From Eledone cirrhosa (Eukaryota): a DNA stretch of 64,000 nucleotides. The notes beneath the pieces are model-generated. The model did not search any database. It was not told where the DNA came from and saw only the letters and a list, made by a program, of their open reading frames with translations. The position numbers and the translations under genes are program-made. Positions within the stretch are counted from its first letter, which is position 1. The number at the start of each line of letters is the position of its first letter. Of the stretch, positions 289 through 62,285 are shown in pieces. The DNA is taken from positions 37,448,001-37,512,000 of the forward strand of contig OZ024743.1 in NCBI GenBank assembly GCA_964016885.1, given 5' to 3'.

Positions 289-633
289 ATTTATTAAAAT
301 AACAGATTAAAGTTTAAGCAAAGAATCGCTGCTTTCACCCTTAACGGGATCTTCTGAAACTAACAAAGTCAATCTGTAAACGCAGAAGTGGATATTTCAA
401 AAAATATTTCAAAAATATTTCAAAATGTTTTTTTGAAATATCCACTTCTGCGTTTACAGATTGACTTTGTTAGTTTCAGAAGATCCCGTTAAGGGTGAAA
501 GCAGCGATTGTTTGCTTAACCATTAATCTGTTATTTTAATAAATATTTGCTCTACCGTTCTTTTATATTTTTGATATATATTTATCCTTATCGAGCCCTC
601 TTTGGATTTTAGTCTTGAAATTTATTATTATTA
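289..633. mobile_element. Fold-back non-coding repeat, local family B (probable PLE pLTR)
   Basis: 289-413 is the reverse complement of 428-545, and the right arm extends to ~633. Flanked by (TA)n. Other pieces at 31698-31810, 37903-37975 and 47015-47082. Confidence 0.75.
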
Positions 634-718
634 ATATATATATATTTATATATATATATATATATATATATATATGTGTACATATGTATATATATATGTA
701 TATATATATATATATATA

Positions 719-1213
719 TTGTTATACTTTGGGAGGATCATGTTGCCAATAAGAAACACACGCACCAGTTGCTTTCACTTCAATTTATTATAAATTAAAT
801 TTATAAATTTAGGAGCTTATAAATTTCCGGTTGGTTGGTTGGTTCCACAACCAGACGATTGTTCATATATTGTCAAAGTTCTTTCGTCACACATTCGGTG
901 ACCTCTTCAGTGACTGGGGATTCTTTTCTTTGTTTTTGTGCCACTCCTTTGTTCTGTCCTACGCCATCTTGTTTTTGCGTGTGTTGTGTGCTTAGTTTGC
1001 GCATGTGTTACATCCGGGTGTCTGTGTGTGTTTATATTTGTTTATTTATTTGTTTATTTACATGTTACAGGTTGGTTGCTTGTTCTATGTGAAGTGAAAG
1101 CAACTGGTGCCTGTGTTTCTTATTGGCAACATTACCCTCCCAAAGTATAACAATATCGGTTTCAACAGACGTTTTCAGATAAAGAATTTGGCTAAACGAA
1201 TTCAGAAACGAAA
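719..1213. mobile_element. Short fold-back derivative of the PLE at 51670-54914
   Basis: 719-1085 matches 51670-52045. 1089-1155 is an inverted copy of 719-781, followed by an extra tail to ~1213. Both ends lie in TA-rich microsatellite. Confidence 0.85.
872..914 (-). ncRNA. Minimal hammerhead ribozyme motif (somewhat degenerate)
   Basis: Minus strand: gtca CTGAAGA g gtcac cgaatgt gtgac GAAA gaactt tgac. Confidence 0.55.
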
Positions 1214-1243
1214 TATATATATATATACTATATATACTATACT

Positions 1244-1800
1244 ATCCTTAATAAGAATACCATTAGACTCTCTTACTCTACCACACCTAATCTAGCTAGA
1301 AACTTAGCCAACAATAACATCAAGAAGCTAAATAAGTCTACTTTTTCCGAAGCCCATCCAGCAACCGATAGCAACTGCAATTGCCCTGATAAGACGACCT
1401 GCCCTCTCAACAACAACTGTCTAAAAAAAGATCTCGTGTATATATGCGATGTACTCTAAGGCCCCGATGAAAAAAGAAACTCGTACATCGGGATGACTTC
1501 TAATAGTTTTAAGACTCGCTGGTACGCCCACACACATTCGTTCCGGCGCCCAGACAAATCTAACCAAACTACACTCGCCGCCCACATCTGGCACCTAAAA
1601 AGGAACTCCATCCCCTTCAAGACCCAATGGAGACTACTCCAGAGAGCGCGATCATACACGGGAGGCCATAATTGCTGTGACCTCTGTATCTCCGAGAGCT
1701 ATGAGATTCTATTCGCCAAAGGCCCTCTCCTCAACAAGATCTTGGAACACTCCCCTTATTGCATGCACAAGAACTATGCAAATTACAAAAACTACAGACC
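1244..1800 (+). pseudogene. PLE GIY-YIG endonuclease remnant (Hydra-clade-like)
   Basis: Reads ILNKNTIRLSYSTT...CNCPDKTTCPLNNNC...LVY...*...SYIGMTSNSFKTRWYAH...CCDLCISE...LLNK...CMH, with one in-frame stop. Includes the start of ORF 1493-1966. Confidence 0.85.
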
Positions 1801-58849: not shown

Positions 58850-60678
58850 GGGGTTTTATCCATATAGCTTGAGGAAAGTTCCCGTCCTTAGGTGTCTGCA
58901 GGCACCGAATAAGTCGGCCCCTCTGTTTAATAGCTTGGTCCCGCCATGAAGAATATCGAGTGTCTCACTAAGACAGAGGTTGCAAATACCAGACCCGCCT
59001 CTGTCTGGGGGAACCTCCTAACCCACGTACCAGACGAGAGAGTGTGGGTCTTTTCAAGTTTGAGCTTCAGATCAATTCAGAAAGGGCCATACATTTCCTC
59101 TATCTATTCTGTTAAAGGAATGGTAATGGTTATACCACGATCTTGAAGCTCGTCGCTGTGGATCCTATGTAGTGGTGCTCCGAGTTAGGGGTTGTGAGCT
59201 TGCACTTTAGACCACGTTTTCGTCATGCATTCAATACTAAGGGGGCATAGTGAGGGTCTCTGCAATTACATGACTTCTTAAGCCCCACCACATGTACCGC
59301 GTGGTTACCATCACTCGGGGTTGACTGGGTAGCCTCCGCAATCAGCACAGGATCGTTGGGTTCCGGTGTGCTAGTTGGCCCTGTCCGGGTTCCGTTGCGT
59401 CCCACGTGCTGGTTCTGTTGGGTGGCTCCGGGTTTTACGGTGGTATTAGAGGCAGTGAGCTTATTCCTATTTATGCCAGCTATGTGCTGGGTTACGGAGC
59501 GTGTGGTTGAGTAGGAAAGTTTCACCGTGTGCCTGTTGAATATTTTATAGTACTTGTGGGCCCTAGGGAAACATTTGTCCAGTACTCTAAAGAATATTCT
59601 AGCCAGGCTGGCACGTAGACCCACCGAGTACGAAGGGTTATACCATGTGACCTTCCTGGTCCTATTCTTGCGGGGTTTTTGGGTGTCCGCCATGGGCCAT
59701 CGCGTGGTTGTGCACAGCTCAGGTCGAGCTCGGTTGATGTCACTCGGGTGTGCGGAGCGGTCACTATCATGAGGGTTATATGGGCACACCGGAGGGCTAT
59801 AAACCTGCGAGGTTAGGCCTCCCTGCTCAATTAGGGTTCCGCAGGTGGTGAGGCCGGTGCAGGGGTGCCTATTCTCCGCAGCACAGTGGTCTTTAGCGTT
59901 GTAGGTATTATACCGGTGGGGTATGCGGGATCTTCTACCGGGGGTGATGACAGATAGGGGTCTGGGAGTGTTACTATTGGTCACCGAGGTATTAGGTGGG
60001 CGACTCATGTCCCTGAGGGTATTGGTCCGGGGTACCCTTGGGTCATCTCGATCATGTCCCTTAGGGTTATAGCTGATCCTATCGCTGTGGGACGCCGTAG
60101 CTAACGCTGAGTTATAGTAATTAGCGTTACTATTGAAGATCTCTTTATTGGCCGACAATTTAGAGATCCTGTCAGAGACACTCTTAACTACGGCATTAAC
60201 TATAGATCTAGGGTGATTAGACCCAGCGTTGATATACACCAGCTTCTCATTGGGTTTATGATGTGGGTGGTGCAGCTTGGTGTTGAGGTTGAGGCTGGTG
60301 TCCAGGAAATTCACTACTTTTCTATTGGGTTCAATCTCTACCTTAAGTCCTACCTTGCTAAAGAAGTGCCTAATTCTCCTCTTCATATTTTCTACCATTG
60401 TGGTGCTGTGGTCCACTACGGTGAAGAGTGCGTCGTCTCGGTTCAGACCGCCAGCCAGGTTGGGTATTTCTCCCTGATCTCGTAGAGTATGTATATCCCA
60501 ACCAAGTCCGTTAGCTGCGCGGAGTCACTGGAGCCCATTGTAATGACAAAATTATTTGGCCAGTCGCTCCGGGTCCATATGTCCCCACCGAATCGGATCA
60601 GGGTTTACTGGCGGCGTGTATGATTCGGAGCTCGTCGCGTGTTAGGTCTGTCCTATTCATCGCGAATATGTGTGCCTT
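58850..60678 (-). pseudogene. GC-richer PLE RT + GIY-YIG (Hydra-clade-like), frameshifted
   Basis: MGSSDSAQLTDLVG, RDDAL, VNFLDTSL, YINAGSNHP, TRKVTWYNP, CNCRDP, CNLCLSE...LLNR...CRH. Includes ORF 59223-60416. Confidence 0.88.
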
Positions 60679-60727
60679 ATATATATATATATATATATAT
60701 ATATATATATATATATATATATATATA

Positions 60728-61070
60728 TGGTAAATGTAACTGAGTTTTTCGAATATTAATAATAACATTCGATTCGTTTGCAATTATGCAAACAAGCCTC
60801 ATTTTTATAGCCACGTCAGTAGAATGAACACTTCATTCTTGTTCTTGTGTTGGCATGCGAACTGAACTGCAGACACTAATGTTTCTGAGTATCTCCCTTC
60901 ATCAGTACAGCTCACTGTTCACCTGCCAAACTGTCAGAGCTAGTGAAAATATATGCTAATGGCTATAACATTGAGGCTTGTTTGCATAATTGCAAACGAA
61001 TCGAATGTTATTATTCAAAAAACTCAGATTACATTTATTGTATTCAGCCATGTAGAGCGAAATTTTCTTT
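60728..61070. mobile_element. Small fold-back element with an internal HHR
   Basis: 60731-60801 is inverted at 60972-61037. (TA)n flanks. Confidence 0.78.
60864..60913 (-). ncRNA. Hammerhead ribozyme motif
   Basis: Minus strand: gagctgta CTGATGA agggagatactca GAAA cattagtg TC tgcagttc, giving an 8-bp stem I with G-U pairs. Confidence 0.75.
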
Positions 61071-61087
61071 TATATATATATATATAC

Positions 61088-62285
61088 ATCAAAGGTATAT
61101 ATTGAGTTAGGGACTCAAAATAGTCTCTTACAATAAAATAGCTCTAAGAAAGAGATATTTCCGAGCCGTATATTATAATAGAATATAAAAGAAAAACGAA
61201 CACAGACATACATATATATGTATTCAAATTGTAAGGGACCTTATTCACTAAGGTGAAAAGAATACTAATTATAGACAGTTGGGTTCGCTTCTCTCAATTT
61301 AAGAAAAAATTAAGAAAATAAATACAAACCGGAATTGTGGTAACTACCAATCACCCAGACAACTTGTTGTATCGCAAAGTTAATTGTGAATAGAAATACC
61401 AATCCAAGCTCATCAGTGGGTGATGAATTAGTATCCTAGACACATCTAAGTATGCTATATATAAAATATATAAAATAGTGCACATGGCATCCTAGCGTGT
61501 CTCACAAACCTACAACACTAAAAATAGCAGCCAGATTTACTCGACATTTGAAATAGCTCAACAAATTAACGGAATCGAATATATCAAAGGTATATATTGA
61601 GTTAGGAACTCAAAATAGTCTCTTACAATAAAATAGCTCTAAGAAAGAGATATTTCTGAGCCGTATATTATAATAGAATATAAAAGAAAAACGAACACAG
61701 ACATATACATATATGTGTTCAAATCGTAAGGGACCTGATTCGCTAAGGTGAAAAGAAAACTAACTATAGACAATTAAGTTCGCTTGTCTCAATTTAAGAA
61801 AAGATTAAGAAAATAAATACAAACCGGAATTATAACATACGGCTCAGAAACATCTCTTTCTTTGAGCTATTTTATTGTAAGAGACTATTTTGAGTTCCTA
61901 ACTCAATATATACCTTTGATATATTCGGCTCCGTTAATTTGTTGAGCTATTTCAAATGTCGAGTAAACCTGGCAGTTATTTTTAGTGGTGTAGGTTTGTG
62001 AGACACGCTAGATGTGTCTAGGATACTAATTCATCACCCACTGATGAGCTTGGATTGGTATTTCTATTCACAATTAACTTTGCGATACAACAAGTTGTCT
62101 GGGTGATTGGTAGTTACCACAATTCTGGTTTGTATTTATTTTCTTAATTTTTTCTTAAATTGAGAGAAGCGAACCCAACTGTCTATAATTAGTATTCTTT
62201 TCACCTTAGCGAATCAGGTCCCTTACAATTTGAACACATATATGTATATGTCTGAGTTCGTTTTTCTTTTATATTCTATTATAAT
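61088..62285. mobile_element. ORF-less tandem plus fold-back element (495-nt unit)
   Basis: atcaaaggtatatattgagttagg at 61088 and 61583. 61832-62285 is inverted. (TA)n flanks. Confidence 0.85.

Follow-up and report, generated by a model that had tools for sequence, protein, structure and literature searches.

The window analysed here is a stretch of 64,000 nucleotides (nt) from Eledone cirrhosa (contig OZ024743.1, positions 37,448,001 to 37,512,000) that lies in a 3.0-Gb genome. It carries many (TA)n runs and inverted repeats throughout, and its long open reading frames (ORFs) are truncated reverse transcriptases (RTs) with a C-terminal GIY-YIG-type endonuclease, as in Penelope-like elements (PLEs). 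A preliminary description had proposed that the nicked (TA)n strand anneals to AUAU in the RNA of these elements, and that this match chooses the start site, explaining both the microsatellite targeting and the variable 3′ ends. We find instead two fixed end points per family, normally one per arm, in the families followed in depth (A and B). Pairing seems to set the register of the ends, not their position. The insertions concerned are as follows, in window coordinates.

290 to 633: family A head-to-head insertion; short end 290 (minus arm) and tail end 633 (plus arm).
543 to 546, plus strand: putative proximal start site of family A, ATAT, read through in the long arm.
549 to 596, plus strand: family A stem GCTC...GAGC behind the proximal site, seen in the sequence and in the predicted fold (z -0.11); it contains ATATATAT at 574-581, which is seldom used as an end.
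720 to 1212: family B short insertion; short end 720, tail end 1212, pattern-predicted hammerhead core at 882-910 (minus strand).
1153 to 1156, plus strand: putative proximal start site of family B, ATAT; the distal ATAT sits 60 nt further on and blends into the target at 1213.
2628 to 3498: family C insertion; ends 2627 and 3499, reading internally through both sites (ATAT 2870-2873 and ATAT 2910-2913).
23449 to 23988: diverged family C insertion with the same two ends as 2628-3498.
24633 to 24839: family H insertion, a counter-example; short end 24840 overlaps its template (TTTTAT at 24704-24699, minus strand) by 1 nt; pattern-predicted hammerhead core at 24780.
38225 to 38957: family F insertion; end 38224 overlaps its template by 1 nt, without TAT.
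42899 to 43481: family G insertion; the short end overlaps by TAT, and the phase of tail end 43482 matches a TAT two bases on (template from 43159).
51671 to 54912: large family B insertion with inverted 5′-truncated ORFs and, unusually, two short ends.
52071 to 53780, minus strand: 5′-truncated ORF with RT (YVDD), CX4CXXC linker and C-terminal GIY-YIG-type endonuclease.
61088 to 62283: family E insertion; proximal ATATA at 61169-61173 (minus strand), distal site near 61920, GCTC...GAGC after each of the two sites.
62308 to 62349: family B insertion of 42 nt, a few short-arm bases joined to a few tail-arm bases.

In the large family B insertion, ORFs 52071-53780 (minus) and 53581-54501 (plus) face outwards; therefore both outer ends of the arm pair are 3′ ends of the element.

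Scripted counts were made on sampled DNA of the same genome, namely the window and 160 stretches of 10 kb (140 regularly spaced on four contigs and 20 adjoining the window), 1.664 Mb in total. A junction was complex sequence meeting an alternating run of at least 10 nt. Of 1,608 junctions, 221 were kept, with an exact 8-nt anchor and a continuation present in at least two copies, giving 88 sites: 27 recurrent (seen at least twice) and 61 one-off. Counts of phase and ends made by eye were taken among the first 100 matches listed per anchor in a whole-genome anchor search.

The observation behind the proposal, that a short arm stops at an ATAT merging into the target, was confirmed at all five sites. 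In family A, short end 290 answers to ATAT 543-546; in family C, 2627 to ATAT 2910-2913 and both 3499 and 23989 to ATAT 2870-2873; in family B, 719, 51670, 54913 and also 62308 to ATAT 1153-1156; in family E, 62284 to ATATA 61169-61173 (minus strand). The junctions named earlier are thus five distinct sites in four families, not nine independent events. The enrichment check against chance came out positive at recurrent sites, where end and target overlap by at least 3 nt in 18/27 (expected 3.0 for random phase and 5.8 for best phase; P 3e-7). The shared core is TAT (17/27, 4.8 expected) rather than the ATAT given as the motif (10/27, 2.3 expected). Comparing each short arm with its continuing partner arm, as had been done in the window, we obtained the same picture: overlap of at least 3 nt at 25/45 sites (9.0 expected), TAT at 23/45 (7.6 expected) and ATAT at 12/45 (2.9 expected). 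This comparison began from 133 junctions, of which 15 were dropped and 44 lacked a clean anchor, so that 74 were tested, making up the 45 sites. Sites of related subfamilies were counted apart, and the P values are therefore optimistic. One-off junctions were weakly enriched (overlap of at least 3 nt in 16/61 against 11.8 for best phase, P 0.11).

The target-matching tract at internal sites is seen at the distal (tail) end as well. At the family B distal site, AAATAT is present in 97 of the 100 listed read-through copies, in which the template continues into the ORF; the family A tail site and family fam5 have TAT only. Of the two ends already said to fit poorly, 38224 overlaps by 1 nt and does not fit, and 43482 also overlaps by 1 nt, yet is in phase with TAT two bases on. 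Family H ends 24840 and 51249, overlapping by 1-2 nt, are further exceptions. An antisense control (4/19 with at least 3 nt) was unreliable and not used, its automatic strand assignment having merged unrelated families.

The anchors before the two family B sites occur at 30,957 and 17,117 places in the genome. Among the first 100 places listed for the first of these anchors, all 29 outward pairs (29/29, by eye) consisted of one short end and one read-through arm. Scripted pairs (n=38, loci partly selected for tails) comprised 22 short-plus-tail pairs, 8 pairs of a short end and a read-through arm with unclear end, 1 short-plus-short pair (window 51671-54912) and 7 others. The tail arm was longer in 10 of the 22 short-plus-tail pairs and the short arm in 8, the rest being similar. 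Since either arm may be longer, fold-back copying of the first arm was rejected as the source of the second, and both are likely copied from RNA. The two family B sites are the only two ATAT in the 200-nt template, and 27/37 TA-ends fall within 1 nt of them, which would also suit a start chosen by the match alone. That strictly one short and one tail end are paired is not predicted by free choice. Many arms of family B pairs stop ~230-270 nt upstream of the short site, past the hammerhead core (~160-190 nt); this is a preferred truncation point. Tiny family B insertions, with an inner length of 38-58 nt and a few bases per arm (62308-62349 and sampled loci L147 and L191), are useful for studying how two cDNAs are joined.

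Ends keep the phase of the template. By eye, 349/357 ends among the matches listed share the phase of the TAT in their template (B tail 95/96, B short 51/53, A short 61/63, A tail 89/89, fam5 53/56), leaving out ends classed as 'other' (B tail 1, B short 1, A short 3, A tail 8, fam5 0). Minor ends shifted by 2 nt at the B tail site (n=15) or by 4 nt at the A short site (n=24) keep the phase, out-of-phase ends there numbering 1 and 2. Template variants were rejected as the source of the B ends shifted by 2 nt, being found in 0/100 listed templates. Family H ends divide 25:13 by phase (Fisher P 9e-10), the 13 following the phase of a TATA that lies three bases on. Scripted counts gave an in:out-of-phase ratio of 14:10 for H versus 164:4 for five chosen TAT sites (A short 33:2, B short 52:2, B tail 44:0, fam5 28:0, fam7 7:0).

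Position does not follow the match. The family A tail holds alternating runs of 6 nt and 8 nt that are better partners than either used site, and together they take just 1/47 TA-ends. Family H, whose anchor occurs at 16,177 genome places, is a natural mutant: its read-through copies mostly show TTTT or TGTT in place of the expected TAT (TATT in 3/60 listed), a change found in the partner arm within one insertion as well. Even so, 25/40 listed ends (by eye) still stop there with one matching base, TATA lying 3 nt further. What does accompany many ends is a stem, RCTC...GAGY: it begins 7-11 nt behind 7/27 of the recurrent ends, against 0.4 expected, and 6-10 nt behind 8/61 of the one-off ends, against 1.1 expected; families A and E have their own stem copy at each of the two sites. 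The breakpoint map of fam2, a template that holds simple repeats, was discarded as noise. Nor does the match account for the microsatellite targeting: a preference for long (TA)n is, we infer, more than 3-4 base pairs could produce, and it has been ascribed, as a hypothesis, to a zinc-finger-like linker (PMC8557442). Of the proposed annealing to AUAU, what survives is the pairing, with which phase and terminal repeats agree; the choice of site by pairing does not.

The terminal repeats occur at the family A tail site, where some ends repeat their own last 9, 12, 15 or 18 bases, in every case starting with TAT at the site. Genome-wide, 328 family A ends match the 9-15 nt form, and none was found among ~558 read-through copies (~10.7 expected, the denominators coming from different anchors). 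In two close pairs both arms have an identical repeat, and the 328 are therefore not all independent. In telomerase translocation, the product re-anneals to an alignment tract. The repeats match what would be expected if a young cDNA ending in ATA re-annealed back onto UAU; they may also have arisen by slippage beside the microsatellite or by inheritance from a few copies. We dropped the idea of family A tail ends entering (TAT)n targets after viewing 7 loci, which showed 3 repeats of the element's last bases ending in TAC, 2 shorter TAT additions, 1 ATT expansion and 1 unclear case. Homing into an older copy as the source of the repeat was seen in none of 4 loci (L283, L284, L286, L287).

We therefore favour, at a probability of roughly 0.6, the reading that the 3′ ends of these head-to-head PLEs stop at two fixed sites because an enzyme held by RNA structure primes both nicked strands there, pairing with UAU setting the register. 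It would join the two fixed sites, one per arm, the target-matching tract, the fidelity of phase and its loss in H, and the terminal repeats, all observed directly. By analogy with the anole element PAc, the arm ends would be starts of reverse transcription, their position likely fixed by RNA shape rather than by the match. The endonuclease would drive the choice of (TA)n and nick it on both strands. A protein that may be dimeric, as has been predicted for PAc, would bind the RNA at two sites close to where the ORF starts, and RNA structure, the stem perhaps included, would hold it there. Each target 3′ end would be set at one site and pair with U, UA or UAU(A), these 1-4 base pairs setting the register. 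Both cDNAs would then extend upstream, stop at different lengths and become joined head to head; a young cDNA would sometimes re-anneal, so that its end is copied twice.

Several points weigh against this. No RCTC...GAGY stem is present at the family B and C sites, and folding of single sequences gives weak structures (z -0.1 to -1.8). Overlap is below 3 nt at 9/27 recurrent and 20/45 paired sites. Outside the 164:4 figure stand A tail (17:3), fam2 (11:4), fam4 (8:1) and C short (3:1), whose out-of-phase counts arise because upstream run-length differences shift the anchor. Slippage beside (TA)n that removes interruptions would also give in-phase shifts of 2 or 4 nt, and the read-through copies, having no microsatellite beside them, do not fully control for the terminal repeats. 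For PAc, the one Penelope examined in vitro, starts are reported at sites without homology to the cut DNA (PMC11167929). Finally, the data are genomic footprints from one genome.

Could the TAT serve without any primer-RNA pairing, as a motif read by protein or as the place where the endonuclease cuts the element's DNA intermediate ('resolution')? We consider this unlikely. It draws on a proposal that the tail results from endonuclease-mediated resolution (PMC8557442) and on PAc, which starts without homology and cuts its own pseudo-long terminal repeat (pLTR) at ATT (PMC11167929); if start and nick phase were both fixed, one dominant junction would likewise result. However, it leaves unexplained the phase-keeping steps of minor ends, the phase split only where TAT is lost (H) and the terminal repeats restarting exactly at the site, and no older copy was split by an insertion in the 4 loci mentioned above.

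An origin after insertion is also improbable in our judgement. Microsatellite slippage is common. Slippage between an internal ATAT and the (TA)n beside it, or deletion there by microhomology, could account for fine patterns (trimming, purged interruptions, duplicated terminal bases) and perhaps the short end, with some ends perhaps inherited from transcripts of earlier truncated copies. The two close pairs sharing a repeat on both arms fit this, as do the microhomology deletions reported in Penelope copies (PMC3846280). Yet it cannot yield exactly one trimmed arm per insertion (29/29) or the ATAT at the distal site; it would prefer the longer internal runs of family A, which stay unused, and 0 repeats were seen in the ~558 read-through copies, which offer a longer match. 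That the nicked strand finds AUAU anywhere in the RNA, the match alone deciding start, targeting and variable ends, is very improbable and as a sole rule already largely refuted: the enriched overlap (18/27, 25/45 sites), the use of both ATAT in family B, the 13/38 H ends adopting the phase of the nearby TATA and one fam5 copy (L289) whose changed TAT goes with an end 3-4 nt further speak for it, but the longer family A matches stay idle (1/47), H keeps its position without TAT (25/38), and fam5 and the A tail site offer TAT only.

The elements can be assigned by their features. As in endonuclease-bearing (EN+) PLEs, we find a single ORF with RT and C-terminal GIY-YIG endonuclease, partial tandems of pLTR and ORF, an inverted truncated copy and a one-sided tail; hammerhead cores (CTGANGA..GAAA) are predicted in arms of families B, F, G and H by pattern match only. 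Families A, fam5, fam7 and fam14 show the marks of the Hydra clade: CxCX5C linker, CxxC and CxH in the endonuclease, an RWK-like motif (RWR at the family A ORF start) and a (TA)n target. The CxCX5C linker occurs in 4 window ORFs, and endonucleases of this type (36-100% identity) lie upstream of the ends of A (4 loci, ~1,030 nt upstream), fam5, fam7 and fam14. The DKT motif was not found in the truncated window ORFs. Family B is of Neptune/Nematis type, with a CX2-5CxxC linker (here CX4CXXC) and CCHH in the endonuclease. For C, H and ten other site anchors, no linked endonuclease was found in the sampled DNA; families C, E, H and others may be non-autonomous.

Profile searches contributed little. 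Pfam on 7 window proteins returned one weak RT match (RVT_1 in 52071-53780, E 6.5e-4, under the curated cut-off) and no GIY-YIG match; YxDD and GIY-YIG-type motifs are present in ORFs 52071-53780 and 15701-17437. Rfam on the window was not informative, sub-threshold microRNA matches to TA repeats and hairpins dominating, and no hammerhead was among the matches listed (150 of 224). Long inserts between RT and endonuclease that are Asn/Thr-rich or of low complexity occur at 15701-17437, 28132-28773, 36429-37097 and 59223-60524; similar inserts have been described in rotifer Penelopes (PMC3846280).

Architecture, tail and (TA)n preference are already known. The head-to-head arrangement with one-sided tail has been described for PLEs (PMC8557442, PMC3846280), and Hydra-1_Obim is recorded as inserting into (TA)n, 4 of its copies sharing one end site (PMC8557442). 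Among the closest systems is PAc, Poseidon of Anolis carolinensis, for which two internal starts bound the tail and both strands were extended in vitro (Frangieh et al. 2024, PMC11167929). PAc has, and the present elements probably have, two internal starts near the ORF start, a tail made of the stretch between them and extension of both target strands; an AT-rich target is common to both, a hammerhead lies upstream in PAc and is predicted by pattern here, and a dimer is predicted for PAc and may act here. They differ in that PAc is reported to start without homology in an AC-rich stem-loop and showed no strand difference in vitro, whereas here the TAT at most sites keeps phase with the target and an insertion as a rule has one site per arm. 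With the Hydra clade and Neptune/Nematis (Craig et al. 2021, PMC8557442) they share the C-terminal GIY-YIG, the CxCX5C or CX2-5CxxC linker, (TA)n insertion, the inverted truncated copy, the one-sided tail and, as predicted by pattern here, hammerheads. The tail there is 30-40 bp and ascribed to endonuclease resolution, in contrast to ~40-90 nt here, and end-target homology is not mentioned in the sections of that paper drawn on here.

Athena and Terminon elements, which lack an endonuclease, are also alike in that a short RNA tract by the hammerhead is proposed to pair with a DNA primer (PMC6431247, PMC8557442). Their pairing partners are telomeric overhangs, matched along several repeats at the end of the RNA, whereas the present elements would pair 1-4 nt at internal sites following a nick. 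Primer pairing has been shown for LINE-1, which needs as few as 4 matches at the primer end and tolerates mismatches there; it primes in the 3′ poly(A) tail, unlike the internal sites here (PMC3649969). Full-text searches, which do not reach subscription papers or Repbase notes, turned up no mention of an in-phase tract or of terminal repeats, and the main text of a bioRxiv retrozyme preprint (10.64898/2026.07.22.740005) does not mention tail, priming or microhomology. The origin of inverted arms, one-sided tail and microsatellite bias in PLEs has been named as an open question (PMC8557442); the footprints supply exact sites and, in family H, the natural mutant.

A wider proposal is tentative. 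(TA)n-targeting PLEs of two clades might carry a telomerase-like UAU alignment tract at each structure-defined start, a dimer priming one strand per site and so producing inverted arms and tail, with the occasional slipping back of young cDNA, which copies the end twice, a relic of the way telomerase adds repeats. Telomerase has an alignment region and adds repeats processively; here, in contrast, re-annealing would be a 2% side event. If true, this would link telomerase's sister group to telomerase-like primer alignment.

Some minor features of the junctions were also noted. At window 35022, 3540 and 24292 and at sampled locus L188, (TC)n stands between the end and (TA)n, the template there being TC or TCTC; this may be a compound target or a repeat born of slippage. 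Families F (38448-38575) and fam2 (49801-49969) contain a degenerate TA/TG-rich stretch that is probably captured target sequence. At locus L080, a fam5 insertion has family B short-end bases on both flanks, possibly a target-site duplication that shows because the junction of another element was hit. The family B tail site also lies in an array where a 46-nt unit is repeated in tandem at least 12 times (G000:C1:132947039-132947574).

Elsewhere in the window, ORF 26012-27103 (minus strand, 363 aa) has no Pfam match and lies next to a long inverted repeat (arms 27470-28068 / 30420-30976), which encloses Hydra-type fragments; ORF and inverted repeat may belong to a different transposon. A dispersed, short interspersed element-like repeat of 160-195 nt, ~80-95% alike and in both orientations, is found at 12549-12709 and ~10 other places.

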